Positions 4,082-59,489 of a stretch of 64,000 bases of DNA are shown here, piece after piece; within the stretch, counting starts at the first letter, position 1; each line of letters opens with the position of its first letter. A program made the position numbers and the translations under genes. The DNA is taken from NCBI GenBank assembly GCA_043228905.1, contig JBHGNT010000007.1, positions 16,616,001-16,680,000 on the forward strand, read 5' to 3'. The notes beneath the pieces were generated by a model. It ran no database searches. It saw only the letters and a program-made list of their open reading frames with translations, and was not told where the DNA came from. The stretch comes from Azolla caroliniana. Lineage: Eukaryota > Plantae > Polypodiophyta.

Positions 4082-7000
4082 CGCTCCGCTTTTCGAAGAA
4101 GGAACTGATGGAGTGGTCGAGAATCTTGGGAAGGGGAGGAACACATTGGTGCTCTTCTAGGAGTTCGAAAGACAATTCACGCGGTTCTCGACATTGGGCC
4201 GGACCGTGCTCGACACGAGCAAGGTCCTATTGTTTATCAAGTTGGTTGATCCACTTGACAAAGAAAAGGTGGGTTTCCTATTGGAGACAGATGAAGGGCT
4301 CATGACTAATTGGGCCGCGGTAAAGAGAGTATATAGCCGTTTCGACAAACGGCGAGAATGGAACGATGCGGGGTCATCGATGACCGGCTCGAGTGCCGAG
4401 AAGAAGTCGGAGGGATTGATTCTGGTGCGGACAAAAGAGACATGAAGATGGCTCGAGTTAGGCACGGTTCCAACTAACGTGGTCAAGGGCCCATCTGGGG
4501 TGCAGCTTTGAAGCAGCTGATGAAGATGGTGTGCGATCTCCAGATCGCACAAGCTCGAAGAGATGGCGGGGGACAATCGCGTGAGTAGAGGCCTCCGGTG
4601 GACCAATGATGCATGTGGTGCAATGCCGTCGGCCACATTCGAAGAGAGTGCGCCGATTTCGCCGAAGCACTTAAGAACAATGTTTTGTACCTTTGGAACG
4701 GGCGGCTACATGCGTGCGATACGTAAAGGCCCCTCGAAGTGAACACTGGACGAGGCGGCATGAAGAGGATAATGGAGGAAGCTGTGGCTTGGAATGCCGA
4801 AGCCATCCACTATTCGGTGTCGGCAAGGATCCAGGTAGGCGGAGAGAAGGGTGCTGCATCCGAAAGCAGTACGGGATTTTGGTCGCTTGTACTAGAAGGC
4901 CTCTCGGAAGTAAGACTGAGATAGGAAGAGGCGGACCTCGAGGAGAAGCGGGTCCAAGAAAGTTACCGAGTGGAGTGACCCGGTCGAAGAAAAAAATGGC
5001 TTTGTGGAGGCCGTGTGCCAGAATTACGAAGTTCTGGTAGAAGACAAACGAGCTGTGAAGAGCGGAGGAGTCGGACCGTCGAACCGTCGAACCGGTATGA
5101 TACCTGAAGTGTGCAGAAGAAGAATGATGGAGGTCCGACAAGCCCACGGGACGGGACCAAGCTGACGAGCTTCCGGTTGAGCTCGGAGATAAAGAGGGTG
5201 ACGGACCTACGAAAGGTCTTGGAGGAGCGGATCCTCAATAGCATAGTAGAGCTGTCATTGAGGGAAGTGCTAGGGATCTCAAAGAAGGAGTTCCACGACC
5301 CCATCATGGATTTGGTAAAATGAAAGTAGCACTAAACAAAGCCTAAGCTAGAGGAGCCCGTAGAGGTGAGAGCAGTACACATCGATGAGGCGACCGCGAC
5401 AAACGAGTTCTCGGCCAGCCACTATATGAAGCCGCACTAGGCGAGAGCGACAACTGAGACACCAATGGTGGCATTGATCGACCATGGGTCTGAAATAAAC
5501 CTAATGTCCATGGACTTCTACAAGAGGGGTAAATGGCCGATCAATACGAAGCACGGGTGGAAGATACGAGCGGCGACCCGCGCTACGGAGAAGCTTCACG
5601 GAGCGTGCCCAAACATCCGAATGAAGGTCAGGGATGTCGAGATTGATCAACACTTCTTTGTACATGAGACATCCTCCCATCCAGTGATTCTCGGCGAACC
5701 CTACATTACGGCATCTCGAATGGAAACAACGGTATTGGACAATGGCTTAGCCTACGCTAGGGTGAAGAGTCAGGACGACCGGCACTCGGTCCAATTCTTA
5801 ACGGTTCGATCGAACCATGAGGGGAATCGGGACTCTCTCTGCGGCGAAGGCTGAGAGGATTTGTAGAAAGCGCTATCAAGGCATGGGGCTACGGTAGTCT
5901 AGATGACCAGAGGAAACCCCACACCTGTACCATAGGTAGGAAATTTTGGCCCTCTGATTATGGGGGTTGTATCATAACAGACATCAGTGGCTGGGAGAAG
6001 AAGAGGGTTGAAAGATGTTTGAAGGCATGTGACTCCTTGGACTTTGAAGATGAGGTCAGCAACGCCGTGGAGGCGGTCTCATTCGATGACACTCTCGGGG
6101 AGATCAAGAGTATGGCCGAAGAGGACCTGTGTGAAGACGGATTATTCCGGTCGGTTCGGTCAAAATGTACAAAGTCATCGCGGACTTCGGAAGGATGGTC
6201 GGGTCGGATCGAATGGCCCTTATGAGCATGAAATACAAGACTGTGGACCGGAAGGTGAGGCCAGTCACAACTCCCTTGCTGGAGGACAGCTGGGAGCGGA
6301 TGAAAGGGGTCGCAACCGACCCAAGTTTACGAGATCCGGTCGACATAGGACAACGGTTCACCAACAAGACGCTATGGGAGCTGAAGATTGGTGGGGGGGC
6401 TTCCCACTACTCGCAGAGGAAGACCGATTTTGAAGAATGCTCAGAAGGCACGAGAAAGCGTTTGCTCTCTCGCCGGGTGAGATCGGGTGCATCGACCCGA
6501 CGATAGTGGAGCTAATGGTGATATTCTTGGTATCGCACGTATCGTGAAGTCTCAAGCCGGTTCTGGAGCCAAGAGCTCACATACCAAAGTTCATGGAGCT
6601 GCTCAAACAGAAGATCGAGATGGGGATCCTTGAGCCATCGAGCGTCCCATACTCGAATCGGTGTTTTACGGTGCCAAAGAAGAACGGTACATTGCGCTTC
6701 ATTCAGGACTTGCAGCCGGTCAACAAGGTGACCATTCAGAATGTAGGGGTCGGGCCGACAATTGACGAGTTTGTGGAGGCCTTCGCAAGAAGGTCGATCT
6801 ACTCAGTCGGTGACTTTTACTCCGGATATGACCAATTCCAACTAGCCGTAGAGAGTAGGGATATCACGACGACGCGAACCCCTCTCGGCTTGGTTTGCAT
6901 GTGTAGCCTCCCGTAAGAAGGGACCAACTCGGTGGCACACATGGTGAATGCAATGAACAAGTTCTTGCAGGACTACATCCCGGACATCACCATGCCTTTC

Positions 7001-15857: not shown

Positions 15858-15861
15858 CATT

Positions 15862-15879
15862 TGGTGAACCCGACGTGAA
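15862..15879 (+). promoter_or_regulatory. Primer-binding site complementary to tRNA-Trp(CCA)
   Basis: TGGTGAACCCGACGTGAA is the reverse complement of the 3' end of plant cytosolic tRNA-Trp (..TTCACGTCGGGTTCA-CCA, recalled from memory). Confidence 0.85.
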
Positions 15880-15896
15880 GGCGGCGACGAGGAGAA

Positions 15897-17993
15897 ATGG
15901 AGGAGCAAATGAGGCTTATGTGTACGATGATGGAACGAGTGATGCGCGAACAAGGGATGATGGCAAGCATCGACAAAGCCGTCGACAATATTCTCGCACG
16001 AGTAGGAATCTTCGAAGGTATAAATTTAACAAGATTTCTGAAGATTTATAATGAAGAAATGCTTAAACGTGGTGTCGACGAAGCTACAAAAATTAATAGC
16101 TTTAGTCGAGTCGCTGCGATTGGGCTACAAGAGAAGATCCAAGAGCTCCAAAGGGAGAATCAGACATGGACAACATTTGAAAGGGCATTACTCAATGAAT
16201 ACAACCTCAACGATATGTCAAGGATGACAAGGCGAGCTTTCATGGATGACAAGTGTTTTGGAAGTATTAAAAGAGTTTTCTGAAAGATTTGAGCAACTAA
16301 ATGTTAGAGATAGAAATATAATAGTACCAGATAAAGTAATATTGTTTCTACAAGCTACTAATATTAAAGATAGGAAGGACTTGGGAATGCTTTTAGAAGA
16401 TCAGAATAGTCCAAGTGGACTTACCGAAGACTGGGAGGAGGTGAAAAGGGCGTGCGCCCATTTCTGCAAAAGAAAGTTATGGTTTATGGAGTTGCCCGAC
16501 AGAAATGATGAAGAAACGGGGAACGAGTCGGGATAAAAGAAAGTAGAAGAATCACTCTTACACGAATTGGTGAAAGGCATGAAAGACTTGTCGATCAAAG
16601 TGACAAAGCTAGAATCGGGACAAAGCTCGACTTCATCAAGGCAGGGAGGTGGAATGGTCCGAAGGTGTATGTGGTGTGATAGTATCGACCACCAAAAGAA
16701 AGATTGACAAGAGCATAGGGATGCTCTTAATCATAATAAAATCTACTATCAAGAGGGCAAGATTCACTTGACAGAGACTCGACAACCACTTCAACTCAAC
16801 TTCGGGCGAGGAGGAATGAAAAAGCTAATGGAAGATGCCGAGAGAGAAACGACTCAAGCGATACAATCCGTGGCAACCTTAGGGTTGCGTGTAGAAGACT
16901 CATATGGTGGATCTGGCTTTTGGCAAGATGTGATGGATTATGCAAGAAAAGGGAAGGTTCGAGTGGATGAATTAAAAAGAGCGGGAGATGAAATACGAAA
17001 CTTCATAGGATGGAATGATCCAGTAGACGCGCTATCAGCATTCGCCCAAGTGAATGGACAAGATGTGCTAGTGGAAGAGAAGCGGAAGAGAGCTGAGGAA
17101 GCTGATCCGACAAAGAGACATGAGACACGAGAACAAAAGAGAAGGGAGATATAGAAAAGGGTGCTACTGAGCCGAAGGAAGCTGATAAAGTAAAAGGAAA
17201 GACAGGCCCATCTTTCAAGCTTGCCTCAGACATAGAAAAAACGACGGATATAAAAAAGGTACTAGAAACAAGAATACTAAATAGTAAGGTAGAATTTACT
17301 TTAAGAGAAGTGTTGGGTATAGCAAAGAAAGAATTTCATGAAGTTATCATAGATATTATTAGAAGGAAGAGACAGGTGACGGAGGAAATTACGGGAGGGT
17401 GTGCAACAACACTCCAAGATTTGTATGCTGGCACCATCAATGCTGCAAGTGTAAAAAACCAGAATGATGTTGGCGTCCATGAAGGGGATAGGAGTCACTA
17501 TACAAGGGACCATTGGGCTCGAGCAACAACGGAGGCACCTGCAAAAATTGGGGAGCAGCAAATTCCATGTATTGCTTTGATCGATCATGGATCTGAGATT
17601 AACATGATGTCATCGGAATTTTACGCTCGAGGACGATGGCCGATCGACAAGAATCATGGGTGGAAAATAAGAGCTGCCACAGAGACTATGGAGGATCTAT
17701 TTGGAGCATGTCCTAGTGTGAAGGTAACAATTGGTGATGTGTCGGTGAATCAAAATTTCTTTGTGCAGGATCGATCAACCTACCCCGTCATCCTTGGTCA
17801 GCCCTACATCACTGCAATGAGGATGGAAACAAAGGTTATTGATGATGGTTCGGCTTTCGCGAGAATCAAGAGTCAAGATGGAAGAAAGACTGTTCAATTC
17901 TTAACCGTGAGGCCCAACCATGAAAGAAACAAAGAATGCTTGAGGGAACATCCAATTCAAGAGATGGATGACGAGTTTTCCCAGGATTTTTAG
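15897..17993 (+). pseudogene. G2 gag-protease ORF (disrupted by indels and stops), ending ...SQDF-TAG
   Basis: ORFs 15897-16283, 16246-16536, 16768-17154 and 17310-17993; CMWCD..DH...C knuckle; LIDHGSEIN protease. Confidence 0.9.
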
Positions 17994-18046
17994 ATAGGGC
18001 TTTTACAGGTAGGGGCTGTGATAGCCCGAACATAAAAGAAAACCCC
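17984..18046 (+). other. Putative -1 ribosomal frameshift signal (G_GAT_TTT_TAG plus pseudoknot) of G2
   Basis: The -1 frame is open from the heptamer into the RT ORF at 18197; homologous signals at 5857-5920 and 55885-55950. Confidence 0.75.
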
Positions 18047-24792: not shown

Positions 24793-24797
24793 CCAAG

Positions 24798-29669: not shown

Positions 29670-29922
29670 TCGAGGTATATACCTCTACGCACACGAAACA
29701 TCCACAAATAAGAGATCATTGTAATACGCAATTGAGGTATTGACCTCTTACGGATACGAGACCAACCGCATATCGTTTACAACAAATCAAGGTATTAAAC
29801 TCATACGCAAATGTAACATATGTTCGTGAACGTAATACGTAATTGAGGTATTAACCTCGTACGCATACGACACTCATCACATATTATTAATATGTCAAAC
29901 GAGGTATTGACCTCGTGCACAT
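29670..29922. repeat. Degenerate ~57-bp tandem repeat (5 units) with GAGGT-N4-ACCTC hairpin core
   Basis: gaggtat(t)(g/a)acctc...acgcatacga recurring near 29671, 29733, 29789, 29844 and 29900. Confidence 0.7.
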
Positions 29923-30171
29923 ATGTAAACGTTTTAGATAATCAATTAAAGACCACTACAACATCATTGACTTAATGAAAAAAATTGACATATAAACTAA
30001 ACACATGATTAGATGGGAGAAGAGAGAATAGAAAAAAAATTCTGGAAAGAGTTACCGAAGTTCTTTGTTGATCGTTGTCTGGATCAAGGCCGACTGCACA
30101 TCGATCGATCAACATCAATCAAAAGACAAATGAAAAACAAAGAAACATTAGTACGTAAATCTGATACCAAA

Positions 30172-30626
30172 TATTATAGATCTTACTACTAAAGTAAGCT
30201 TAAGATAAGGATAAAGTAATGATAGATAGAAAGGAGAAAGAGAAAGAAGGGTGCCGATCCACCCGACCACCCCCGAGCGAAGGGATCAAGATGGACTCGA
30301 GCCTCGATCGGCGTCCCATACCACCGTCGTGGCGTCGAGTCGTACCTGGTGCTGGCGCGCTCGCTACAAGAGTTGACCCACCACACGAGCAGAGTCTCGA
30401 TGTAGTCAAAAGATGATCAAATGAGGGTAGCTAGGCCTCTTATTTATAGCGATACCCAAGGCCCCCAGGCAAGTTCACACTTGACCTAATGGGTTGTCTC
30501 AATCCCGAGGATTAAAAGTAATCCTCCCCTTCTTTACACTCTCGTTTAACCCTCACACTTATCCACGTGTATAGAATACTACGGTAAATTCTCACCACGG
30601 GATATTATATGGTCATGCCCGTAACA
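30172..30626 (-). repeat. T1 5' LTR
   Basis: Repeat of 10802-11256; adjacent PBS tctgatacca; boundary confirmed by the homologous LTR at 59623. Confidence 0.88.
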
Positions 30627-40323: not shown

Positions 40324-41586
40324 TCAAGATGGACTAAAGCAAAGAGCAAGATTGCAGTTCACAGCATTGGGGAGATCGAGCCATTCCCATTTCTCGTGCA
40401 TCACATGGAATTGCATTGCACGTGGCGAGCCAACCGCCATGACCACCACGAGATCGCCATGCCCACAATAGCAGACAGACACTACGGGCGTGCTCCTCCG
40501 CCATTCCCACGCATTGTCCACCAGACCTTTGTTCATCTCATAGGGACAATGGGCAACCTCTCTCCAACAATCTAGCTTCTTGGGCTCAAGCTCCCATACA
40601 ACACCCACTGTCACTCTCTCATTGTAGGGGCTGGTGTCACTACCACCAGTGATGGTGTCTGGTGATGACGGACACTTTGTTGTTGCGCCCACGAGCAAGA
40701 CACGGCCATTCCAGCCTTGGAGGAGTCTTGGTGGCGCTTCGAGTGACCGATGCCTATCAGCCATCGTGCAAAATACTAGGTCTTCGGGGAGTTTGGCTGG
40801 AATGAGGCTCCATCTTCCCCTCCTCACATCAAAGGTAATGATGTTGCGTGATTCCGGATTGATGGAGTAGATGAGCTCGCACATACACTCGGCAGTGCTG
40901 GAGAATGACAACAAATGCCCACCTGTAGATGTCTCAGGGACAGGCATCAAGTGCCATTGCCCGGCCTCGGAATCGAAGATGTTTAGGTATAGAGACGTGG
41001 CTCCGGGTCCGGGTCCAGGAATATGCAGCTGGACGAGGACAAGGACCCAAAAGTGGGGGCGGGTACATGGGGAATAATCCGGCGGGGTGACTATGGCCCA
41101 TAGCTTCGAGAGGGGGTAATTGCCCGGGGGGTCGGGGATGGGCACCCATTCTTTGGAGAAAGGTGAACCGACCATGAATTGGTGGGGGGGACGAATATAG
41201 GCCATGTCGGAACCAGTATGGATGCAGATGAGGCGGGAGAGGGGGTGACCCACCCACTCCCGGACCGAAGGAGTCGGCAATGCCATCTCTACCCATCTGC
41301 ACCCCAAGGTGTTGGTGTAGGAAACCTTGATGTTGTAGTTATAGAGTAGGAGCGTGGGTGGGGTGCACCCCGTGCGAACTTGGTCTTGTAGTTTGCGGAA
41401 CCATGGGGTGACCACACATGACCGCCATGCTCGGCATACCAGTTGTACTCGAGTTGCGTCGACAAAGGAGAGACGGGTGAGAATTAGATCAACCACCTCG
41501 GATGGTAGTAGGGTCCAGAGATCTCGAGAACATGGCATTCTTGATTCATTAACTACATGAGGCATGTTTGAATGCATAATTTCCAT
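40324..41586 (-). CDS. Intronless F-box protein with kelch/FBA-like C-terminal region
   Basis: LWTLLPSEVVDLILTRLSF...VCRAWR F-box motif; IFDSEAGQW and FDVRRGRW beta-propeller-like repeats; first in-frame ATG at 41586 (alternative start 41538). Confidence 0.88.
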   Translation of the reverse strand: MEIMHSNMPHVVNESRMPCSRDLWTLLPSEVVDLILTRLSFVDATRVQLVCRAWRSCVVTPWFRKLQDQVRTGCTPPTLLLYNYNIKVSYTNTLGCRWVEMALPTPSVREWVGHPLSRLICIHTGSDMAYIRPPHQFMVGSPFSKEWVPIPDPPGNYPLSKLWAIVTPPDYSPCTRPHFWVLVLVQLHIPGPGPGATSLYLNIFDSEAGQWHLMPVPETSTGGHLLSFSSTAECMCELIYSINPESRNIITFDVRRGRWSLIPAKLPEDLVFCTMADRHRSLEAPPRLLQGWNGRVLLVGATTKCPSSPDTITGGSDTSPYNERVTVGVVWELEPKKLDCWREVAHCPYEMNKGLVDNAWEWRRSTPVVSVCYCGHGDLVVVMAVGSPRAMQFHVMHEKWEWLDLPNAVNCNLALCFSPS

Positions 41587-43559
41587 ATAGTGCACAGACA
41601 CCCAATGAGTTAAGTTAATTGTAAGTCAAATTTGACATGAGGTCAAAAAAGAGTTTGAACATCGCATTGATACATGAGCCTATGTTGCATAAGCTCAATT
41701 TAAACATAGATATCCAAGGAATTAGGTTAAGTATTTCGGTTGTAAATGGGGTGAGGAAGCGGAGTTATCTTAAGGAGATAGAAAAAGAAGAGGTGAAGAA
41801 CTTGTTGCACATGAGGGAAGACTTCTCCACATGGAACACAACACACTATCATTCTTAGATAGAAATAAGCGTTTTATTACTACAACCTCTTCTAAGACCA
41901 AGTTTGTTGTTTTGAATAAGATGAAAGCTTTTTTAAAATAATGATTGCATGATATTTAATTTTATAACTGCTTTTAAAAAGTTAAGTCATCATAACATAT
42001 ACAAACAATATTGACTTGTGCTTCATCTTTTCTTCTCGTATGACTTTTCGTATACAAATTGAACTTGTACACATTTCAAATATTTTAAAGCTTCTTTCCT
42101 AATTCTAGTTTTGTCGACTTACACACAAAGAAATGTGACACTCGCTATTTGAAACCTCATCATCCATTCATGACATGTGCATGTGTTATAAAACAACCAA
42201 ATCATAGACTATGCTTGTGTTCCTATGTCATTGCATATGCCATCATATACCTCCATAATATCTTATCACCTTTGCTTTTGGGACGTGGAGCCTTACTATT
42301 GAGATGAAATCCTATCTAGTCATCCAAAGAAATGTCGTATTCTTTCTTTTTTTTCTTTTTCTTTTTCCAAAAAAAATCCTCTTTCTTTAACTTCATTATC
42401 TAGTCATGATATAGCAATGTTACTTTCGGTCACTAAATAAAGACATATGGTGCACACATGAACACTAAACATGGAGTGCAATGATCTAAATGTAGTTTAA
42501 AGGGATTTCTCTCTCGATCCTTAGTATCCAAGAGTAACCATAGCAACTCATACACCAAGCCAACCACATTGTTGGCACTAGATAAAGTCAGAGGATGCAC
42601 ACACGAATACTAAACTTGGAGTACATAGTGAGGAAACGAAGATTATTATACCATTAACAAAGTGTTGAAGCACGATTACAACAAGGAATTTGAAACACCT
42701 TAACCTCATGTTCTCCTAAGTGACCAAATATAAAAGCACTAATACTAGAATGTATTCTAAGTTTCATTTATATATAATGAATTGTTAAACTTAAAAAACT
42801 AACCCATCTAGCATATTCAATGCACCCTACTTTTTGTTCACATGTGAAGCTCTTGTTCACACCTAGCACTCAAGCACTTATGCAAATGATGTCATCCAAT
42901 TCAGTTTAGATTTTGCATGTGATCCACTTGCACACTCCTAGAACATTTGGTTGCCTAAACTTTTGCATCATCTAGCTCCATTTGCTTGGTCTTTTTTACA
43001 ATAGTTGGAATTCTCCTGCCTAAATGATTCACAATAGCTTCTTAATGTCCTTTACAAAGATATCTATACAATTGTCTTTTGAAGTTCATTAATCCAACTT
43101 CATCTTCCCATTTGAATTGAACTATCATATGAAGTGGTATTGAATCTTGACATGTTTGGCTTTTACAATAACAATATGATGTTATCTACATTAGCTCCTC
43201 CATTACCATCTTGATTTTTTTGAGAAGCTTTCTTAGCCACAAAACTTTCAATCTTGTACTCCACTTTTGTCAAAGGCAACTAGATATTGCTCAATTATTT
43301 GTTCTCTTTATAAGGAAATATTTTAGCTTCTGTTGTAAACATGGGTTACGATGGAGTCCTTGAGAGCATAGATCCTACCACTAGGATAAAGTATTTTATA
43401 TTTAAAATAAGTGTATTTCTTGTAATGTAGTCAAATAACCGTTATATGTAAGCAAAGTGTGACAACCAAGTGGCATCATGCTTGTAAGCTATTAGTGCAT
43501 CTGAGACGAACAATCCTTTTAATCCTCCATCATCACTTGTGGATTGAGGCCCAGTGCTA

Positions 43560-44344: not shown

Positions 44345-45490
44345 TGTCCTCCACACCTCACACCATCTGCTTCGATCCCTACACCATCTTCACTCTTAAG
44401 AATAGACAAATTGCTTCATTCCATCCACATCAACCATCTCGCCGAATACCACCAATGTCTTGTGCAATTAACAACAAAATAAGTGAAAAATGGTTCCTTA
44501 TCCCCTCATGATCTGCTTCGGTCCCCCCCACCATCATCACTCCTAAAAACAGACACATTGCTTCATTCAATCCACATCCACCATCTCGCCGAATACCACC
44601 AATGTCCTGTACAATTAACAACAAAATAAGTTTAAAATGATTCCTCATCCCCTCATGATCTTCTTCAGCCCCCACACCAACACCACTCATCCTCTCGCCG
44701 TGACAAACATGCTTCAAATCCCATTGCCATCATCCCGCAACCTATGAGAACCATAATATCTTCTTAACTCAACCCATATCCGGAGCATCTCCCTGACCCT
44801 ATTCCATCTCACCGATTACAGCGATCCTATACTAACAGCCAAAAAAGAGTGAAAAACAATTCCTCACCTTCTCATAATAATCTGCTTCAGCCCCCACACC
44901 AACATCACTCATCCTGATCACAAAAACATAAAATTGGCTTCGTCATGTCCCCATCTACCATCTCGCTATCTCCGATTCTCTTAGGATTCCTGCCTATTAC
45001 TGCTAAATTCCACCGAGGTCCTGTGCAAATAACAAAAAATAAGTGAAAAATGTTTTGTCCTCCACTCATGACATGCTACAACCCTCACACCATCACCACT
45101 CATCCTCTTGTGATGACAGATATGCTTCAAACCCCATCACCATCATCCCTCAACCTATCAGAACCATAACATCTTCATAAGTAAGCCCTGATCTGAAGCA
45201 TCTCGTTGACCTTCTTGCCATATCGATGATTACCTCGAAAATCCTGTTACACTAACAGCCAATCAAATGAGTGGAAAAAATCCGCACCTTCTCATAATAA
45301 TCTGTGACAACCCCCACCAACATCAGTCATCCTAATCACAAAAACAGAAAACCAATTTCCTCATGTCCTCATCCACCATCTCGATGTCTTCAATTATCAC
45401 AGGAATTCCACCTCATACCACTAAAATCCTTCTTATACTACTCTGCTTCAGCACCCACAACATCATCCCTCATCCTCATGTCTTCATCCA
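44345..45490. repeat. Degenerate tandem/segmental repeats (about 130-bp and about 420-bp periods)
   Basis: ccatctcgccgaataccaccaatgtc x2; atgcttcaaa.cccat..ccatcatccc.caacctat x2; ctgcttcagcccccacaccaaca recurring. Confidence 0.6.
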
Positions 45491-45539: not shown

Positions 45540-48500
45540 CTTCCTACATGCTGCAACCGTCTCCTCCATGTTGGCTCATGTTGATCGCAATAAGAATGGT
45601 ACCGGTGGGGGGGAACAACCAACGAGGTGGTACATAGTTCCACCTAACCTCAGTGCCTGCATCTAACATTATAGGAATAGTTGACCAAACTCGTCGAAAT
45701 CTCCTTCTTTTTCGAATAGATGTGTTTCCAGAGCCCTTATAAGTGTCATACTCACCTTTAACCGTATGTACTAATAAGTTCCAAAAAGACTTTACCTGAT
45801 CCACAATGTGATTGTCTTCATCATTGTATAGCTTGGAACACCTAGCTTTCCAAAGAACCCATAGAGACAACGAGGAGACAATCTGCCAAACATAACTCCG
45901 CGAGAAGAACTTGATTTCCTGCAAGGAGCTTGAAGTAGAATATACCTGAAAAATTCTTACATGTAAAGACAAGGAAGAATGATTATAATGATAAAAAGCC
46001 CTTTGTTGATCCAACATTCCCCAAAAGACTGCACCCCACGTGAAAATAGTCTACCTATACTTACGACATAGAATCCTAAGAATTCGACACCAAAAACTTT
46101 TTGTGGAAACACATTCCCAAAAGACATGAGGCAATGTCTAATCCGCAAACCCACACATAATACATGACCGATTACTCACCGATCCCCTCAACAAATCACC
46201 TACTGGCAAAGCATAATGAATCATCAACCATCGAAAATGCAATATCTTATTCATGCATTTAATTGACCAAAACTGTTTCCAAAACCGTATCACCATATGA
46301 GCAGATGAAACATTACCTTCCTCCCAATACTTTTTTCCAGCAAGTATCGGCTCAGTCTGCTTCAACATAAAATTTCTGCCAAATGCCACTAAATATGTGA
46401 AGAAAGGAAGGACCTTATTCGAAGAGTCAGACATGGACAATTTCCAACCATAATCCGTTGGATCCCACTGCAGGTCATCAATTGGTTTAGAGTCTAACAC
46501 CGAAATATGAGATGAGAAATTAGCAATTAGTGGACTAGGATCGATATATATATTTTTATCTAATCTAGCAATTACTCTCATTGGAAATTGCTTCGCAGCG
46601 TATATGATTGGAGACTCCTCATCCACTAGTATCAACCTACCATTGTCCAAAACTTCATAAAAATAGAGGTTGCCATTTTGATGATATAACCGAGCTTCTA
46701 TGAGTATATTGAGTGTCGAGAACATACCGTACCAACTCTGAAAATGATCGAATTGCAATGTTGGCATTGTGACCTGATACACCATGGACAATTGTGATAA
46801 CATGATCTGAGCCCCTCTTAAGTTAGATAACCTATTCCTTTGATCCTGTGTAGAGGACTGCATAAACTTTATCCAATCCGCAACCGTATGTGTTGGTCCA
46901 CTGTCCATTGCAGCCCATGATAACCTAGGGTGTAAACCCAAAACACATGCAACTTCATCAGTAAATAAAGGATTCCATATCAATGGTTGACGCATAAATT
47001 GATGATAGCTTTTCGGTGGCAAGAAAATAAGTGTTTGCCGAAGACTTTCCCATGCCCAAAAAAATCCATTGAAGAAACGCAAGGATCCATCATTGGACTT
47101 AGGTAGCTGGAAATCTGCATTAAAGAACCATCTAAGACTATCCTTCCATTGACCACCTACTGAAGGCTTGACCTTATGTAAATGTTAAATCCATAGCTTT
47201 TTCCATAACTCCTCTCCTAGCAATAAACTCCTAACAACATGTTTAGTAAGTAAAGCTTTGCTTTGCATAAATGGATCAATCAAACCTAAACCTCCTTTTT
47301 GTTTAGATTGTATCAAAACAGACCAAGCTACCTTTGCTACAGAATTGTCTGACCTATTGTTCCCCCAAATAAAATTTCGTACTAAACATTGAACTTTCAA
47401 CATTATCGACTTAGAAAACAACCATGTAGATGCTATATACCAAATCGGGGACAACAACACCGAATTAGCTACAACTACCCGTCTAGCTAAGGATAATTTT
47501 TCGTTATTCCAATATACTAATTTATTTCTTAATCTTAACAATAAGGGCACAATCATATCTTTTGTCTTTAATCCCACACTCACTCGACAACCTAGATACC
47601 TAATGGATTGACCTTGAGGTATCCATGTGAATCCTAAGGAAGGTACATTAACTGGCTGATCTCCCGAAGCGACCCAAAAACCTGATGATTTATCCCAATT
47701 TATCAATGCACCCGATGCATCTGAGAAATCATCCATGGCCTTTTGCACCTATAACAAATTACAATGTGAGGCCTAAACATATAAAGCTGTATCATCAACG
47801 AATTCGCTATCCACACCAGCATTTGCCACTGGTAGTGCTAAACCTTTAATATTTACATATTGAGAATTTAAATGTATAGAAAATGCTTCAGATACTAGCA
47901 AAAACAAGAAAGGAGCAAGTGGACATCCCTGCCGTACAGATCTTGAAATAGAAAACCGCCTACCAATGTCCCCTGCAAATAAGAGAGAACTATTTGCATT
48001 ACGATATAATGCTGAAACTCCTCGTATCCATGTGCTTGGGAAACCCATCCTGAAGAGTGTTCCCTCGATAAAATCCCAGTCCACTCTATCGTAAGCTTTT
48101 TCAAAATCAAGAAATAACACTGCCAGATCTTCCTGTTACCGGCCGGCAAAGTAGTCCAGAGTGTGAAACAGAGGAGTTATTTAATTATTAGGAATGGTTG
48201 TAAGTAAGCTATTAGTGTGGACGGATGGACCGGAATCGGTATGCCATTCCAGATCCGGACCGATCCCGAACAGGTGCGGATGGCACCGTTTTGTACTACA
48301 AACCGGAATCCTATTTAAAGGCCCGGATACAATGTAATGAGCAACGGTTAATTAATAAAGCGTAGTGTTTTTATCTCTCTGTGTTAATTGTCGTTCTGCA
48401 TTCATTGTTATATCTTACGCGTGTGATTATTAAGGACAATATTGCTAAGTAACCTAATTAAGTCGTATTAATCGTTGAGCCTAATCCTCTTGCCGTAACA

Positions 48501-49245
48501 CCCCTTTGGTGAAGTGTCTTCCGTAGACACCCTGTGTTAGGCCATTGTCCGGCCCTAAGAGTTAACACTTCCTTCTGCACTTCAGCGAAGGTCACCATTT
48601 CCCAAAAGAGAATAATATTATCAAAGATACTTTGCTCTTGCAAAAAACTAGTTTGGGTATCATGAATCAACTCCGAAAGATAAGGTTGTAATCGTCTAAC
48701 TATCGTTTTTGCCAATATCTTATAAATAACATTCAATAAGGTGATTGGTCTCCAATGGCTAAGCTCTTCTAACTGTCCACTTGTTTTAGGAATCATATAG
48801 ATTAAACCCTCCTTCCATTCTTGTGGCATATTTCCAGAATCTAAAATCTGTTGAAAGGCTTTGGTCAACCCATCACCTATCAAATCCCAATACTGGATAT
48901 ACCATTGAACTCCCAACCCATCCAAACCAGGACAAACATCCTTTGCAAGGGCTTTTACTGCTTTAAAAACCTCTTGAGGACTTAATGGTTGTAAAAGACA
49001 ACCTAAAAGATTTCCAGAAACCCTATTATGAATCCTAGTCCAGATCATGATGTCCCTCTTAACCAGGTCAGCCTCGGAAAAGGGTCTAGCTTTTAATGAA
49101 GCCTCATAATAATTAGAGGCTATTTGTCGCATTTGACTAGGATCAGTGGTATAGGAGCCATCAGGACATTTTAATCTAGAAATCCTAGTTGATGACTTAT
49201 GATGATTATGCACTGCAAAGAACAACTTATTGACCTTATCTTCAA
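45540..49245 (-). mobile_element. 5'-truncated L1-type LINE (ORF2 RT and zf-RVT), decayed, interrupted by a solo LTR
   Basis: CPGLDG, WRPITLLNVIYKILAK, LDFEKAYDRVDW, RQGCPLAP, FVDD, KVAW..GGLG and C-terminal C..C/H.F..C motifs. Confidence 0.9.
48134..48567 (+). mobile_element. Solo LTR (434 bp) with 5-bp TSD cttcc
   Basis: TGTTA...TAACA; TSD at 48129-48133 and 48568-48572; removal restores LINE EVQKEDLAVLFLDFEKAYD; TATTTAAA and AATAAA on +. Confidence 0.9.
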
Positions 49246-50534
49246 TTAGTTGTGTCCTTGACATAGCGTATTGTGCAAAAGCATATGTAATCTAGTTGTT
49301 TGGCCTCTTATGGTTCTTATCCAAATTGATCTCAAATAAGGGCATAAATAAATGTGTACTATAAATAGTAATCTTAATCTATTAATAATATAGGAAATTT
49401 ATAGGTGGTGGATTTAATGCCCCATTATGGACAATCAATTACTAAGGTAATGTTTGTGATATCCCCACGTTCTTGTTGTTCTTGTCTCATCCTTGATCCT
49501 CCATCTTGTCACATTCTTGTTTGTATTTAACATCCCTACTTCCAACCTCTACAAATAGCATTGCCATCATCAGTCTTTCCTACCATCACCATCTTATAGA
49601 ATAATAACAAGAGTAGGGTATCGCCGAATAAGAAGGATTAGTGCACAAATTATTTTAGAAGGATTCAATGCCACAAACCTCCCATTCACCTTTGTGACGT
49701 AACTCAAGTATATACATCTATGGAAACATGCCTCTACACTTATTAATTAGTCATTTATCTTTGTCCTTTGATAGCTAATCTCTAAATTAACTATTAGTTA
49801 AACATTTAAGTATTAACTATTTCTTCTATATAGGGAATTGTTAACTTCAAATGGAAAGATCATTGGTCTAATTAGTTAACACTAATTTAACTCTTAAATT
49901 TGTATCTAATAAGATGAGATCATGAGTTGTTAATTAACATTAACTTATGAGAATTATTGTGATATACATAACTAGTTAGCTATTATTCCTATACATCACT
50001 TAGCTACTTAACTAATAAACTATTCCTTGTCAATTAGCCAATTAGAACCTTGTCTCCTCCTAATAACCCAAATTAACCAATAAGCTAAGATCACTCACTA
50101 TTAGTGCTTCTAATTGTTAGAATTAGCATTATAGTTACATAGCTATATTAGTGGTCAACCATAACTTTATTGTATTTATCATATACAAATGAGGTTTCTC
50201 AAGGATTTGGTTAACTAACTATGTCATCATAGGCTATAGCTCCTCACTTCATGATGCAGTATACACTTATTAATGTACTTGTCTATCAAACCATTGACAA
50301 AAAAATAATGCATCAATACATGCTTACAAATCAATGAACGATCTTTTATATTCAATATTGTGTCCTCAAGGATTTGAGGTTATCTTCCACCATTACAAGT
50401 GTGTCATGGGTATATATTCAATATATGGTTCTAGATTTATATGGTATTCAAAAGAACTATGTAGTGAAATTTTAATACCTTTTAAATTTAAAATTATGGA
50501 GTCAACTTATGAAGTCAAGGTATGTAAACTATCG

Positions 50535-51543: not shown

Positions 51544-52453
51544 TGACACAGTGACATGAAATACATATTTGGTGAGTATTGAACCTACAAGTTCACATCA
51601 ACAAAATATCATGCTCAACCATTTTGATATAAGCATTCATTTGTATTTTAATATGTATTCTATAGTCTAGCATATAGTACATTTCAGAATCAGAATATTC
51701 TAGTCGTTAGTATATTCTAGAAATATTATACGGTGTCGAGGTATTCCTCGCGGATGCGTGGAATGAGGCGGGACCTCGGGGGTCTTGTACCGAAGAGCAA
51801 GAGAGAAAGGAGAAGGGAAGAGACCCACTAGGTGCGAGCGTAGATCCACAGGGACACGGCCCTTCGACACGAAGACGCGAGCGGGAAACCAACACAGAGA
51901 GACACGAAGGTATGTATCTATATATTAACAGAGACAAACAACAAGAAGCACGAAGTCGGTTACAACTGAACAGGCCAGCGAACAGATGCCGATGCTTGTT
52001 TGCAAACGCTCAGAAAGAAAGGAGTAGGTTGGAGGTGCTGCCGGAAGCACTCGGGCATTCCTCAGAGCAGCGCGAGCCTCACGAAACCTGCACAGAAAGA
52101 AGCTACGGAGTATGGAAGAGAGAGAAGCCTTCGATCGACAACCCGACAGCACTTCGTCCTCTCTGATTCCGCGATTCCCTCCCCATTCCTCGTCTCCGTC
52201 CTTTTTATAGGCAAGGAAGGAGCCGTTTCCCATTAACTTCCTACCTACCGAATCTACCTACCTAGGATCTTCTATGTACCTAATTCTCTCTTATGTACAA
52301 CATAAGACGTTCGTGCATGAAGAGCCGGTTCCTACGCTACGGTGCACCGATTCCGCTTGTGGACGGTTTTCTTCACGACATCCGCCCCCACCTAACCGCG
52401 CATCCACCGGCATGCGCCAAATTGAGTTGGGACGGAGAAAACCGGTCCAGCCT

Positions 52454-55400
52454 TCATTCCCCGCCCGTCGGTTCTTTCTCGGTTTCGGATCGTTCGCTGT
52501 CGCGGTCCAGGTTAACCGGATCCGGCTCGTCGTTGTGACGCTTCTTGAACGCTTTGATCCGCTTCCCAGCTACCGGTATTGCCATTCTCGTGTCGTCGAG
52601 TTCTGCCAGATGGTACGTCCCGTTGTCGTTGGCGCTTTGGACCACGTAAGGCCCGAACCACCTTCTTGCGAACTTCCGTGTCGCTCGGTGCTGGTTGTCG
52701 AGGCTGCTGTCGTAGACTAGCACCCAGTCGCCTTCCTCGATCTTCTTTGGTCGGAGCTGGTGCGTCCGGTCGAACCGGGCTTTGTTCCTCGTCCTTGCCA
52801 CCCGAAGCTTTCCCGCAGCCTGCTCCACGTCCTCCGGTCTTCGCTCGAGCTGTCGTATGCGCCCCGCCAACAATTCCTCCTGGCTCATCTCATCTTTCCA
52901 GTCCACGGTTGCCCATGAGGAGATCGTACGTTCCATTGGCATGATCGGCTTCTACCCAAACATGAGCTCTGCCGGCATGAATCCGGTTACCGAACTGTGC
53001 GTAGTTTGGTCCGCCCACAACGCGTAAGGCAACAGCCGCGGCCAGTTCCCGACTTGATCTCCGCATGCCCGAACTAACGCCTTGACGATCGGTCCGTGTC
53101 CGCGCTCCACCTTCCCATTCGCCTCCGGATTGTACGCAGTAGTAAGCGAGAGCTTGACTCCTAGCCGGTCGAACAGCTCCTTGGCCTCTTCGGCGTCCAA
53201 CTCCCCGCGATCAACCACGATCTTCCCGACGCACCCGTACCGGCATATCACGTCCTCGATCAGGAACTGACATTCGGCCGCAGTCGTTTTGTTCTGAAGG
53301 GCTCGGCCTTCCACCTGGTTCGTCAGATCTTCCCGAGCCAGGACCAGATACCGCATCTATCCTACTCCCATCGGCATTGTCACTAGGTCTACCATCCATT
53401 TGAAGTGGATGGTCGGAGGGTACGTAGGGTGAAGCTCGTCCCGATGTTGGACTATGGAGTGCATCTGACAGCTCTCGCAAGTTGTCACGAACCGATGCAC
53501 GTCTCGATAGAGTCCCGGCCACCAGTACTTCCCCTTTATCTTCTCGAACGTGGCCCACGTTCCACGGTGTCCAGCCCAAGGGCTGTCGTGGTAGGCCGTC
53601 AGCAGCTCCTCCTGTTCTTCCTTCATCGCCACCACCCGGAGCGGGACGCCGTTCCTCTTCTTCGGGTGCTTCCATAAGTATCCGTCCCGGAGACAGAATC
53701 GGTATGCTTTCTTTCTCGTCCCTCGTCCCTCGTCCATGACGCATCCGGCGTCATTGTCCTCAAAAACCCACCGATCTATAGCCACTCGCCGTCGTACTTG
53801 CTCTCGTCGAAGTCATTAAGTGTCGAAGTGCTCGTCCCATCGGTTGTCAAGTACGCTGCGCCGAAGAAGTCCACGCCGACTTCTTCGTCCTTCGAAACCA
53901 TGCCGCCCTCGTCATCAAACCTTGCCCTCGAAAGCATGTCCGCCATGGCGTTGTCTTTTCCGGAAATGTGTCATATTTTCAGGTCCAGGGACTTGATGTA
54001 CGCTATCCACCTGAGCATCCCCAAGTCCGGTGTCGCGCATCCGGAAACCATACCGAGAATTGGCAGGCAATCTGTCTCGATAATCACTTCTGTCCCGATC
54101 AGGTAGTCTTTGTCGGCCTTTACTGTTGAAACGATACCCCAGAGTTCGCGTTTAACCTGGGCGTACCCTCGTTGTCGCTCACTGAGGACTTTTGCGCCGA
54201 ATCGGATCGGGAACCGAGTGCCGTCCTCGTCTTCTTGGTTGACGACCCATCTGATCCCGGTCGGACTTGAATCCACCGTTATGTATACCGGGGTACCCTT
54301 CTCGTAGACAGCCTTTCGGAGCGCCGGTGCTGCCGCTAGAGCTTCCTTCAGCTTCCGGACCGACTCCGTGTGCTCGTCTCGCCACTCGAATTTTTGCCCC
54401 TTCTTCAGCAACCCGTATAGCGGCTCCGCAATGTGGGCGTAATGCGGGATCCATATGTGGTAGAATGTGCACGCCCCCAGGAACCTGCGAACTTCCGTGA
54501 CCGAGCTACAGTCGGTCTTCATCGCGGAGATGGCTTCCACTTTTGCCGGAGACGGCTTCCGGCCATATGGTCCACATAGGTGTCCGACCACCAGGATTTC
54601 TGATTGCTCGAAGGCCGATTTCTCCCCGGAGAAGGTGAGCCTCGCAACCTCTAGCCTTTGTAGCACCTTCTCGCAGTCGTCGATGTGTGTTGCCACGAAT
54701 CGCCGGCATCCGTCTGGCCTGAGTGTCTCGTCCTTCTCTTCCACCGGGCACCCCTTTATCGGGATGTCGTCTAGAAATGGCATGGTGACGTCCGGGATGC
54801 AATCCCTCAGTACCTTGTTCATTGCATTCACCATGTGGGCCACCGAGTTGGTCCCTCCTTGTGGCAGGGTACACATTCGCACTAGGCTAAGGGGAGTTCG
54901 CATCGTCGTAATGTCTCTGCTCTCCACGGCTAACTGGAACTGGTCGTACCCCGAGTACAGATCACCGACCGAGTAAATCGACCTTCCGGCGAAGGCCTCC
55001 GCGAACACGTCTATGGTCAGTCTGATTCCTGCGTTCCGAATGGTCACTTTGTTGACTGACTGCAAGTCTTGAATGAAGCGCAATGTTCCGTTTTTCTTTG
55101 GTACAGTAAACCATCGGTTCGAGTATGGGGCACTTGACGGTTCGAGAATGCCCATATCGACTTTCTGCCTCAATAGCTCCATCAACTTCGGGATGTGAGC
55201 TCTCAGTACTGGAATCGGCTTGAGATTCCACGGTACATGCGGTACCGTGAATATCACCATCGGCTCCACGATTGTCGGGTCTACGCACCCGATCTCTTCC
55301 GATGAGAATGCGAAGGCTTTCCCGTGCCTTCCGAGCATCCTCCGAAACCGGTCCTCCTCCGCCGGCAGTAGGAACCCGCCCCCACCGATTTTGAGCTCCC

Positions 55401-55944
55401 GGAGCGTCCCGTTGGTGAAGGTGTGTCCTATGCAGACCGGATCTCGCAAACTGGGGTCCGACGCACCCCCTCTGATCCGGGACTCGCTGCCCTCCGATAA
55501 GGGTGCCGCGACTGGCCTTACCTTCCGGTCCATAGTCTTGTACTTCGTGCTAACCCGGGCCGTCCGATCTGGCTCGAGCCCCTAACTGAAGTTCGCGATG
55601 ACTTCGTACATCTCTTCGGAACATACCGGTATCGTCCGGTCTTCATTAAGGTCTTCTTCGGCTACCTTCCTCAACATCCCCAAGGTGTCGTCGAAGGAGA
55701 CCGCCTCCACGGCTCCGCTGATTTCCTCGTCCGGGCCGAGAACTCCGCACGCTCGAAGTCGCTCCTCCGCCCTTGTCTTTTCTCGGCCAACGATGCCGAC
55801 TATCATACACCCTCCGTCGTTGGAGAAGCAAAATTTTTTACCTATCGTACAATGTTTCTTCAGTTTCGGTTCTATCGTACAGCGGTGGGGTCTTTCCCGA
55901 GTGTCAGGACTGTCTCGGCCCCACGCCTTGGCAGCCCTCTCTAA
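52454..55944 (-). pseudogene. G3 pol (linker, RT, RNase H, integrase) with several in-frame stops
   Basis: ORFs 55582-55806, 53971-55533, 53357-53785, 52952-53356 and 52454-52942. Confidence 0.9.
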
Positions 55945-55950
55945 AAATCC
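55885..55950 (-). other. Putative -1 frameshift signal of G3 (G_GAT_TTT_TAG plus pseudoknot)
   Basis: S1 GGGCTG/CAGTCC, S2 GTGGGG/CCCCAC, 6-nt spacer; pol is in the -1 frame. Confidence 0.78.
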
Positions 55951-58066
55951 TCCCGGTTCTCGCCACCGAGGGATTCGCGGTTTCGCTCGTGGTTCGGTCG
56001 CACCGTCAGAAATTGGACCGAATGGCGTCCGTCCTGGCTTTTGACCCTGGCGTAGGCCGAACCGTTGTCTAGCACCTTGGTCTCCATCCGCGTTGCTGTG
56101 ATGTATGGTTCCCCTAATATGACCGGGTGCGAGGACGTCTCCTGTATGAAGAAGTGCTGGTCAATCTCGACGTCGCTGATCTTGACTCGCACGTTCGGGC
56201 AGGCCCCGTGCAGTTCCTCGGTGGCGCGCGTCGCCGCCCGTATCTTCCACCCGTGCTTGGTGTTGATTGGCCACTTTCCCTTCTTATAGAATTCCATGGA
56301 CATCAGGTTTATTTCCGAACCGTGGTCCACCAATGCCACCACCGGTTCCTGAACATCTCCGATCTTTACCGGGGTCTCTGTGGTCGCTCGGGCCCAGTGC
56401 GGCCTCGAATAGTGGCTCTCCGCCCACTCATCTTCCAGCGCCAAGTCGTCGATGTGCGTCGTCCGCACCTCCACCGGCCTTTCCGGTTCCGTCTCCGTCG
56501 ACAGCCTCTTCCGCTTCACCAAGTCCACATGGAGTTGTGGAACTCCTTCTTAGCGATCCCTAGCACCTCCCGTAATGACAACTCCACTTTGCTGTCGAGG
56601 ATCCGTTCTTCTAGGACCTTTCGTAGGTCCGTGGTCCTTTCTATTTCCGTCCCCAATCGGTATCCGCCCTTCCTGGGGTTATCTTGCGTGCTGGACCCAC
56701 CGGCATCGTTCCGTCGTTTCCCGAATCGGGTCTCGTATCGTTGTGAGGGCCCGGCCGCCCCGGCTTTCCCCACTTGTTTGTCTTCTACCAGAGCCTCGTA
56801 GTTCCGGCAGGCGGCTTCTACGAAGCCCGTCTTCTCCTCGACCGGGTCGCTCCACCCGGTTATTTCCCGGACCCGTCTCTTAGCGTGGTCCGCTTCATCT
56901 TTCCTCAGCCGTGCGCCGGCGAGGCCTTCCAGCATTGCCGACCAGAATCCGTCTTTGCTCTCCTTTCGGGCCTCGCTGCCCTCGACCCGAATACCGGCCG
57001 ACGCCGAGTAGTGGATGGCCTCCACGTGTCGGGCCGCTGCCTCTTCCATCAGTCTCTTCATACCTCCTCGCCCGTTGTTTCGGTTTAGGGCCCTTCTGGT
57101 ATCGCCGGCATGCACCCGGCCTTCCCACAGGTACACCACCCGGTTCCTCAACGCCTCTGCGAAATCGCCGCAGTCCTTCCGAATGTGGCCGACCTCGTCG
57201 CACCACATGCACCTGTTCCCTGCTGCCGGCCGTCGGTCACGAGCCGGTTTGCCGCCTTCCCTTCGAGTCTAGGCGATCTGGAGATCCTTTATCGCCCGCG
57301 TCAACTCCTCCAGCGCTGCTCCTCCGGACGAGTCATTGACCATGCCGGTCGAAGCCGAACCGGTTTCGAGCCACTCCCGGGTCTCTGCCCTTCGCCCTTG
57401 CGGTGCCGGTTCAAGCCTCCTTGCTATGACAGAGCCCGCACCGGCCGCCCCGTTGTCAGCCCATTCTCGTCGTTTGTCGAAACGGCCACAGACTCTCTTA
57501 ACCGCAGCCCAGTCGGTCGTCAATCCGTCTTCGGTTTCCAGCAAGGAGCCGACTTGATCCCGGTCCCGCTCGTCCACCGACTTGACGAACAGTAGGACTT
57601 AGCTCGTATCCAGAACGGTTCGGTCAAGCGTCGAAAGGCACGCAAAGCGTTCCTCAAACTCCTGGAGGAGTGCCGACGCGTTTCTTCCCTTGCCGGGGGA
57701 CTCCACCCATCCCATGAAGTCCCGTTTCAAAAGCCGGAGCGCGTCGTCTAGCCCGTATTTTTCTAGGAGTCGGCCTTCGAACTCCTCCCAGGTACGGCTC
57801 TCCGCCCGTACCTTGAGCACCTCCGCATGGATGCTCAGCATCGCCACTCTAGGGAACCCGGCAAGACGCCTCTCTACCGGAATGTCCCGCATTAGCATTT
57901 CTGCCCCGTACGACGCCAAATACTTCGTAGCATCCTTTCCGCTGAACCGGCCGATCATATCGATGACCACCTCAATGGCTCTGTCGAGGGCGCCGGTGCC
58001 CTCGCGTGCGCTCAATATCCGATCCACGGCCGAAGCCATGGCCTCCGCAAGATCCGACCCCTTCAT
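55941..58066 (-). pseudogene. G3 gag-protease, ending ...REDF-TAG
   Basis: ORFs 57599-58246, 57269-57577, 56516-57208 and 55941-56528; CMWCDEVGHIRKDC; VDHGSEIN. Confidence 0.9.
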
Positions 58067-58088
58067 CTTCTGCTCTTCTGCCGCCTCC

Positions 58089-58106
58089 TTCACGTCAGGT
58101 TCACCA
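58089..58106 (-). promoter_or_regulatory. tRNA-Trp PBS of G3
   Basis: TGGTGAACCTGACGTGAA, one CpG transition away from the G2 PBS. Confidence 0.85.
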
Positions 58107-59489
58107 AGATGTCGAGGTATTCCTCGCAGATGCGTGGAATGAGGCGGGACCTCGGGGGTCTTGTACCGAAGAGCAAGAGAGAAAGGAGAAGGGAAGAGAC
58201 CCACTAGGTGCGAGCGTAGATCCACAGGGACACGGCCCTTCGACACGAAGACGGGAGCGGGAAACCAACACAGAGAGACACGAAGGTATGTATCTATATA
58301 TTAACAGAGACAAACAACAAGAAGCACGAAGTCGGTTACAACCGAACAGGCCGGCGAACAGATGCTGATGCTTGTTCGCAAACGCTCAGAAAGAAAGGAG
58401 TAGGTTGGAGGTGCTGTCGGAAGCACTCGGGCATTCCTCAGAGCAGTGCGAGCCTCACGAAACCTGCACAGAAAGAAGCTACGGAGTATGGAAGAGAGAG
58501 AAGCCTTCGACCGACAACCCGACAACACTTCGTCCTCTCTGATTCCGCGATTCCCCCCCCCTTCCTCGTCTCCGTCCTTTTTATAGGCAAGGAAGGAGCC
58601 GTTTCCCAATAACTTCCTACCTACCGAATCTACCTACCTAGGATCTTCTATGTACCTAATTCTCTCTTATGTACAACATAAGACGTTCGTGCATGAAGAG
58701 TCGGTTCCTACGCTACGGTGCACCGATTCCGCTTGTGGACGGTTTTCTTCACGACAACAGTATATTCTAGACGGGTATATTCTAGAGAAATTTCTCGAGC
58801 ATATTCTAGAGATATCCAATCTCGGAACTTGTATAAATACTTATAACCTCCTTGGTCCCTATCAAGGGATTTGACGCTAGTCATTGACACATCAATCTAG
58901 TATTCTCATTTTGCCCCATCTTGTCTCCTCAATCTTCCTCTCTGTCTTCATGCTCGTGTCCTTCCTAGCTTCTTAAGTTCCACGCTCTTAGCCCCATCAT
59001 CCGTGCTCCGTCCCCGTCCGCGGTTGGTGTGTTCGTCACAGTTTGAATCCCTTCCAACTAAAAGCATCACCCATCTTTTTCATTGCCCTTGCTTCTAGAT
59101 TTACCATCGTCAGAATCCTTGCTTCCAGAATTACCGTCATCAACATCCTTGGTTTTGGAGAACCTTCCTCATCATCGTCGTCTTTGTTGCCTTGCCTTCG
59201 ACATCATCATTTTTGCAGCTCTTGTTGTCTTCATCAAATGCTACTTTGCCCAACCTTCATTGTCATCAACACTACTTTGCATGGATTGATTTCAATCACT
59301 CACATTCACAGTTCCAGTGGGGGTTACAACCACTCACTTTCTTGGTGCGGATCAAATCATTGCTCATTTGCACTCCATTTTCATTTCGGTTCAAGTTTCA
59401 CTCCACTTTCCTTTGGCGAGGGTCGATTTTGATCGCTCACATGATAGAAGAAGTCGAGTCACCTGCTTCACCTGCACTCTTTCTCCCGT

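Follow-up and report, generated by a model that had tools for sequence, protein, structure and literature searches.

A predicted -1 frameshift signal between protease and reverse transcriptase in a Phygy-like lineage of plant gypsy retrotransposons

The 64,000-nucleotide stretch of Azolla caroliniana DNA studied here (assembly GCA_043228905.1, contig JBHGNT010000007.1, forward-strand positions 16,616,001 to 16,680,000; hereafter the window) contains three gypsy LTR retrotransposon copies of interest, G1, G2, and G3, all of them damaged. G3 covers 7023 bp (51734-58756), and its parts are listed in Table 1 together with the junction features of the three copies. The primer-binding site, which from its motif we take to be of the tRNA-Trp type, contains the sequence TGGTGAACCYGACGT, kept in 20 elements. 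Pfam places DUF4100 in ORF1 and reverse transcriptase (RT), one RNase H region, and integrase in ORF2; in five pol ORFs, four of them essentially full length, it finds neither a Chromo domain nor a second RNase H. In three-frame translation, the protease end (...REDF*) lies in one frame and the linker and RT in the -1 frame. The damage to G3 totals seven stops and two frame breaks: two stops and one break in gag, and five stops (55584, 53973, 53778, 53359, and 52954) and one break (at about 53750) in pol. The original prediction described the RT ORF as open except for one decay stop; this is correct up to RNase H only, since further stops and the frame break lie beyond.

Table 1. Features of element G3 and of the junctions in the three copies of the window
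Feature	Position	Strand	Remarks
5' LTR of G3	58110..58756	-	647 bp, TG...CA; 97.8% identity to 3' LTR
3' LTR of G3	51734..52380	-	LTR pair comparison
5' target-site duplication of G3	58757..58760	-	CTGT; 3' copy CCGT; NCGN type, one CpG-type mismatch
Primer-binding site of G3	58090..58106	-	TGGTGAACC...
ORF1 of G3, Gag (DUF4100) and protease	55941..58069	-	stops 57601, 57271; frame break at about 56528
Protease domain of G3	55944..56399	-	retropepsin fold, D-H-G catalytic motif (catalysis putative), C-terminus ...REDF
ORF2 of G3, -1 frame	52454..55949	-	linker of about 130 codons, RT, RNase H, integrase
Slippery heptamer G_GAT_TTT	55944..55950	-	in frame with ORF1
ORF1 stop TAG	55941..55943	-	TAG, TAA or TGA in relatives
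Spacer, 6 nt, TAGAGA, stop included	55938..55943	-	heptamer to stem 1
Stem 1, 5' strand GGGCTGCC	55930..55937	-	alignment pairing and per-sequence finder
Stem 2, 5' strand GTGGGG, inside stem 1 loop	55919..55924	-	alignment pairing and per-sequence finder
Stem 1, 3' strand GACAGTCC	55907..55914	-	alignment pairing and per-sequence finder
Stem 2, 3' strand CCCCAC	55885..55890	-	alignment pairing and per-sequence finder
G2 cassette	17984..18046	+	GGATTTT, TAG, 6-nt spacer; family differs from G3
G2 stem 1	17997-18006/18018-18027	+	
G2 stem 2	18012-18015/18043-18046	+	
G1 decayed cassette	5857..5930	+	GGATTTG TAG, damaged stems, many surrounding stops

G2 forms part of a nest of LTR elements at 10441-30626, in which a chromovirus (LTRs 10441-11256 and 29811-30626) contains G2 (14970-27774), which in turn contains a copia element (19346-24793). 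The same copia occurs once more at 4-3313, and the separate element at 11243-14797 has a chromodomain. The target duplication of G2 (GCGT/ACGT) is NCGN-like with one CpG-type mismatch. G3 had been named the best-preserved copy, which is not clearly so: the LTRs of G2 are 99.55% identical, against 97.8% in G3, and the -1 frame of G2 is open for 485 codons, up to the copia insertion. Elsewhere in the window, the sole host-like gene noticed is a 433-codon ORF with an N-terminal F-box (40324-41625, minus strand), and the regions 44365-45429 and 46138-49291 hold local direct repeats, after which come LINE-like fragments with zf-RVT and RT matches.

The heptamer, stop, spacer, and stems of G3 had all been placed correctly by the original prediction; the two stems are interleaved, and pol is in the -1 frame. 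Stem 1 had been given as a 6-bp pairing, which is present but forms part of a helix of 8 bp (55937-55930/55914-55907, with one C.A mismatch in G3). The 5' strands of the two stems are separated by AAGGC, CCGA stands before 55914, and a loop of 16 nt precedes CCCCAC. An additional CCGAG/CTCGG helix, also proposed for this site, is not conserved: 47% of cells are paired, versus 45.9% when the partners are slid by one.

The domain upstream of the stop has a protease fold, in agreement with the proposed placement of the signal after the protease. Its structural model (pLDDT 74.5) has as top Foldseek matches the RVP domains of Ddi1 (E = 9e-7) and retroviral proteases; the domain itself has no Pfam match and no PDB sequence match by profile. 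Some Riccia relatives carry a D-T-G motif and Pfam protease matches, and these together with the fold match indicate that the signal sits after a protease-fold domain. With respect to the retropepsin (A2) family, the fold is present and the D-[ST]-G motif is absent, D-H-G standing in its place. D-H-G is found in 241 of 274 motif-bearing proteins, D-T-G in 11, and D-S-G in nine. In G3 the D-H-G site lies in the region 56325-56317 (minus strand, motif LVDHGSEI); the protease is under strong purifying selection, and the catalytic role of the site is putative.

Relatives were collected from 80 metagenome loci, 35 with assembly coverage of at least 5 and 45 with lower coverage. The contig names all belong to a single accession series. 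Most families are therefore probably from one group of hosts, and only locus L081 and the protein C-termini are independent. Among the 35 high-coverage loci, GGATTTT stands in frame at the end of the protease in 29 and GGTTTTT in two; three have no heptamer, and one lacks the junction. The three exceptions in this set are L048 and L049, which are derivatives without pol, and L052, which ends before the junction. The corresponding numbers for the 45 low-coverage loci are 20 with GGATTTT, two with GGTTTTT, two with the heptamer out of frame, 10 with none, and 11 with the junction missing. The claim that the cassette is conserved is thus borne out, the same signal being found at G2, in decayed form at G1, and in the majority of related contigs. 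The heptamer stands immediately 5' of the stop in 48 of 71 scorable junctions; the stop itself varies (27 TAG, 11 TAA, and 10 TGA), and the codons preceding such heptamer-stop junctions specify 10 different amino acids. Wherever one of the 71 junctions ends in GAT TTT, the preceding base is always G. Intact relatives keep protease and RT in two overlapping frames, as had been anticipated, with an ORF1 of 709-761 codons, an ORF2 of about 1100-1190 codons, and an overlap as short as 10 nt. In L020, L042, and L043 the open pol frame reaches back no more than 10 nt from the heptamer end, which pins the frame switch to the heptamer. One intact family (L047:2491-2586) has its stop five codons after the heptamer and none adjacent, so an adjacent stop is usual but not required. 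These comparisons indicate that the junction signal is a trait of the lineage, not a product of decay.

Codon usage at the junction was examined in 18 representatives with protease identities of 55-97%, which were picked by hand and all have the heptamer; the coverage-based count of 35 loci is free of such bias. The last codons are GAT in 16 and GTT in two, followed by TTT in all 18, and the codon before GAT or GTT always ends in G, across seven amino acids. By comparison, both codons are used in all 27 other conserved two-fold columns. Under the codon usage of the family the chance is 0.074 per lineage, a figure that is not a P value, the lineages being related. In its first 31 codons the pol frame has no stops in the 18 representatives, versus 37 and 71 in the other two frames. 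From the heptamer to a conserved KYK motif it is stop-free in 17 of 18 (G3 has one stop), versus four to 24 stops in each of the other frames. Over 10 pairs, dN/dS is 0.02-0.06 for the protease, 0.24-0.50 for the linker, and 0.04-0.13 for RT; on these values the pol frame is under purifying selection.

The two derivatives without pol consist of Gag and protease of the L042 family (L048:1-2225 and L049:1-1737), and the deletion in L048 begins at the heptamer and rejoins near the integrase end. Their coverage (10 and 7) suggests several copies, as non-autonomous elements. In this one lineage the first G of the heptamer is replaced by A, possibly by plain CpG decay. No relatives were found in viral contigs. 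Two were found in contigs of prokaryote genomes, likely as plant contamination, and only one of them, L081, spans the junction; it is a retrotransposon of plant type, lies on a contig filed under a cyanobacterial genome, and probably represents contamination from the sampled habitat.

The protein databases give a similar picture at the C-terminus of ORF1. Of the 353 protease homologues, 241 could be scored and 112 could not. Among the scored products, 122 end in DF, 13 in another xF, 39 in DF plus five residues, and five in DF or VF plus one to four residues; 28 have other ends, and 34 read on past the junction. In all, 179 of 241 end at DF, at a like xF, or a few residues later. Those examined among the 34 are named gene models, with joins at varying places. 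The group ending in DF plus five residues (..VPL, ..MPL; P0122, P0125-P0142, P0163, and P0168) includes members from Physcomitrium and Adiantum, and its protein ends suggest that these elements probably keep the heptamer and have their stop within stem 1. Homologues with a named source are from Physcomitrium, the fern Adiantum, and the liverwort Riccia, which points to a seed-free plant as the host. A length window of 645-2053 aa, which spans a full Gag-Pol, holds 120 pol homologues, 37 of them Riccia gene models. Of the 83 others, 82 lack a protease; only P0275, on a long and distant branch, has protease and RT in one frame. In 26 of the Riccia models both protease and pol are present, and the place of the join differs from model to model, a pattern to be expected from intron prediction across a frame break.

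The pairing of the two helices was measured on an unfitted MAFFT alignment of 38 junctions. Overall, 90.2% of cells are paired (94% and 84% in the two helices), a level reached in none of 500 shuffles, and partners slid out of register are only 35%-49% paired. Two-sided changes occur in seven of 14 pairs (21 cells). Slid controls come near these counts (four to seven pairs and five to 18 cells), so the weight lies on the pairing level, and the covariation count alone is weak. An alternative hairpin in loop 3 was rejected as not conserved (55% paired, with 34 of 500 shuffles as high). A per-sequence pseudoknot finder, for which the spacer range was chosen after the data had been seen, beats all 60 shuffles in 13 of 15 families; one of 60 shuffles is as high for G3, and 15 of 60 for L017, where the finder picked a different stem. 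In 12 elements the score was matched by zero to four of 141-188 background windows. The spacer is 6 nt in all 10 deep -1 lineages listed. L081, which belongs to another collection and stands outside the 38-junction alignment, has GGATTTT, TGA, a 6-nt spacer, stem 1 (GCACACGTGG/CCACGGGTGC), stem 2 (GGGGA/TCCCC), and a -1 ORF of 927 codons; its stem 1 is unrelated in sequence to the others yet stands at the same place. Nested minimum free-energy folding is not significant for three of the five junctions tested, G3 (z = -0.29), L081, and L042, and predicts stem 2 alone, so that the sequence fits either a pseudoknot or two alternative helices. Rfam gave no match above noise.

Three poly(A) libraries of a related species, all from one study and each covered to about 12%, provide RNA reads at the junction. 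The region 55000-56700 is covered by 108, 71, and 194 reads, and 55780-56080 by 27, 19, and 43, with a depth at the stop of 8-21 per library. No splice joint or indel is listed at the junction at this depth, in line with the absence of splicing that had been expected, and none of the 40 differences listed, among a larger number, falls within the heptamer, stop, or stems. The reads are on both strands and mostly <90% identical to G3; given this and the low depth, they are weak evidence against splicing and no evidence for expression of G3.

We put at roughly 85% the probability that the Phygy-like lineage joins Gag-protease to an overlapping RT ORF by programmed -1 frameshifting on G_GAU_UUU, with a predicted H-type pseudoknot as the downstream structure. 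Four sequence features of canonical -1 sites are found here: a zero-frame heptamer (in its G_GA variant), a spacer within 5-9 nt, a conserved structure, and an open -1 ORF. The layout of two ORFs, the invariant heptamer with its adjacent stop, the two conserved interleaved helices, and the selection on the -1-frame protein are direct observations; with the varying identity of the stop and the lack of a conserved AUG or splice donor and, in the RNA reads, of a splice joint, they support the frameshift reading of the original prediction.

A first competitor, removal in some transcripts of an intron that spans the stop and joins protease to RT in frame, has a precedent in Ogre, which splices at the same boundary according to Neumann et al. 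2019 (PMC6317226), and gene models of Physcomitrium and Riccia do bridge the junction by predicted introns. Those joins, however, are scattered over many positions. Within the last 60 nt of ORF1 the GT dinucleotides differ in position; a common one 60 nt upstream is missing in six of 18 representatives, and L081 has none. Only one frame of the would-be intron is free of stops, its length differs by whole codons, and its protein is under selection; no splice joint is seen in the low-depth RNA reads. Splicing would also leave the invariant heptamer unexplained, and we consider it quite unlikely. Production of a separate Pol, by reinitiation or internal initiation at an AUG past the stop, is very unlikely. 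A Met in a ..S..MY.. motif near the linker end is common, and RNA structure in coding regions can have other roles, so the stems might serve, for example, packaging or dimerization; but the position of the first Met in the pol frame ranges from codon 2 to codon 109, the late linker Met is replaced in L019 and L020, and the pol frame is open and under selection well upstream of it. Packaging of Pol in retroelements relies on a Gag handle, which a free Pol would lack.

Addition of a base by transcriptional slippage on the T5 run (TTTT and the T of the stop), which would bring pol into frame, is in keeping with a T after the heptamer in at least 90% of rows. The stop codon explains this T, however, which is C in the intact L047; no indel is seen at the run in the RNA reads (at low depth), and slippage needs neither GGA nor a fixed spacer to a structure. 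We regard it as highly improbable. That the junction is a functionless frameshift mutation inherited by dead copies might be thought from the window alone, where all three copies are damaged. Yet families down to 55% protease identity share the junction with both ORFs intact, at the low protease and RT dN/dS values given above, and these intact two-ORF relatives refute this explanation, whose probability we take to be close to nil.

Under programmed frameshifting, the majority of ribosomes would terminate at the ORF1 stop and release Gag-protease. A minority would stall at the structure while GAU occupies the P site and UUU the A site, and the Asp and Phe tRNAs would slip back by one base, from GAU to GGA and from UUU to UUU. 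The shifted ribosomes would then read linker, RT, RNase H, and integrase, yielding a Gag-protease-RT-RNase H-integrase fusion that the Gag part would carry into the particle. Protease would thus equal Gag in amount, with rationing confined to RT and integrase.

Two loci depart from the -1 arrangement. At L036:2489-2584 and L037:2827-2922 the junction reads CAG GTT TTT with a 5-nt spacer, and both helices are kept; pol follows in the -2/+1 frame, and a stop ends the -1 frame within five codons. Both ORFs are open in L036 (761 and 1106 codons), and L037 has a pol of 1181 codons and one stop in ORF1. Their dN/dS is 0.05 for protease and 0.07 for RT at a saturating synonymous distance, which shows purifying selection on both ORFs and rules out a recent deletion. 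They lie inside a supported clade (96/98) of a tree whose root is unreliable, the chromovirus outgroup being a very long branch, and from which four Physcomitrium RT pieces were left out as too short; the other placed members with junction DNA use -1. AG_GUU_UUU matches the arterivirus -2 site RG_GUU_UUU (PMC5644247), and -2 shifting was found to be optimal at spacers 1-2 nt shorter than those for -1 (Lin et al. 2012, PMC3458567). The sequence of L036 (UUU_U) would fit a +1 slip, but that of L037 (UUU_G) would fit it poorly, and we therefore prefer a -2 slip. From the two contigs and the matching protein clusters P0169, P0368, and P0369, we infer that this derived subfamily reaches pol by a -2 slip on AG_GUU_UUU. 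The arterivirus nsp2TF shift resembles that of L036 and L037 in its motif (PMC5644247) and in its -2/+1 product frame, but there a protein complex acts and no RNA structure, whereas L036 and L037 keep two helices 5 nt downstream.

Several known systems resemble the junction in part. Dianthovirus and umbravirus stimulators are bulged stem-loops with long-range 3' pairing. These are RNA viruses, and in the elements described here both helices lie within 70 nt. Their heptamer is the same, and a stop stands at its 3' end or close by (PEMV G_GAU_UUU_UGG_UAG); the review of Atkins et al. 2016 (PMC5009743) contains both dianthovirus and umbravirus matches, with G_GA heptamers and spacers of 5-9 nt, in accordance with the original attribution of G_GAU_UUU to dianthoviruses. 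The same review cites a 2003 survey (Gao et al.) as having found only +1-frame cases in plants.

Beta- and deltaretroviruses shift at gag-pro as well, so that their protease is also rationed. MMTV and HTLV-1 have a -1 shift between protease and RT (for HTLV-1 pro-pol, see PMC5009743), but in the Phygy-like element Gag and protease share one frame. A pro-pol shift in Dictyostelium Skipper, considered as a precedent, finds no confirmation in PMC5006619, which gives two ORFs with the protease in ORF2.

Among plant LTR elements, Neumann et al. 2019 (PMC6317226) describe Phygy by a 4-bp NCGN duplication and a tRNA-Trp primer-binding site, with the ORF organization given as "ND"; their definition is from Physcomitrium only, with a size of 7656-9968 bp. 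The elements studied here share the NCGN duplication, carry a primer-binding site that is putatively of the Trp type, have no chromodomain and no extra RNase H, and are filled by their coding region, and named Physcomitrium protease homologues are about 59%-70% identical. G3, however, at 7023 bp is below the published range, and homologues here reach Adiantum and Riccia; with G3 shorter than that range and placed by its features, we call the lineage Phygy-like. Tcn1, a chromovirus, has a chromodomain after integrase, which is absent from ORF2 here.

According to additional file 5 of PMC6317226, a single in-frame stop separates GAG-PROT from RT-RH-INT in 49% of Retand elements, and in Ogre the spacer is spliced as an intron in 35% and a single stop is found in 14%. 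Both split Gag-protease from RT-RNase H-integrase at the same boundary as here, but these elements of the Tat group, to which TatI also belongs, carry an additional RNase H of archaeal type, and no overlapping frames are listed for them. In that file overlapping frames appear only between GAG and PROT (Tcn1, Selgy, and SIRE), with no plant lineage having them after PROT. Of the novelty originally suggested for plant LTR elements, the split itself was therefore already known from Retand and Ogre, whereas a different-frame overlap at this boundary is not listed in additional file 5. We found no prior description of this signal in the open-access literature searched.

Taken as a whole, the data make it fairly probable that in a gypsy lineage of mosses, liverworts, and ferns a -1 shift driven by a pseudoknot operates between protease and RT, as a third solution beside the stop of Retand and the intron of Ogre, and that one subfamily has switched from -1 to -2 (G_GAU_UUU to AG_GUU_UUU, with the spacer going from 6 to 5 nt), its shift driven by RNA structure and matching the spacer rule of artificial constructs.

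These results fill the blank on the coding organization of Phygy and suggest that the plant non-chromoviruses have three controls at the protease/RT boundary: frameshift, lone stop, and intron. They supply dozens of natural, compact plant frameshift cassettes with their sequence variation, and the -1 families with their -2 sisters would allow the mRNA-tension model of shift direction to be tested on natural material. Gene models of Physcomitrium, Riccia, and Adiantum seem to contain spurious introns at the junction, and pipelines that score such elements as frameshifted and dead would miscount intact copies.
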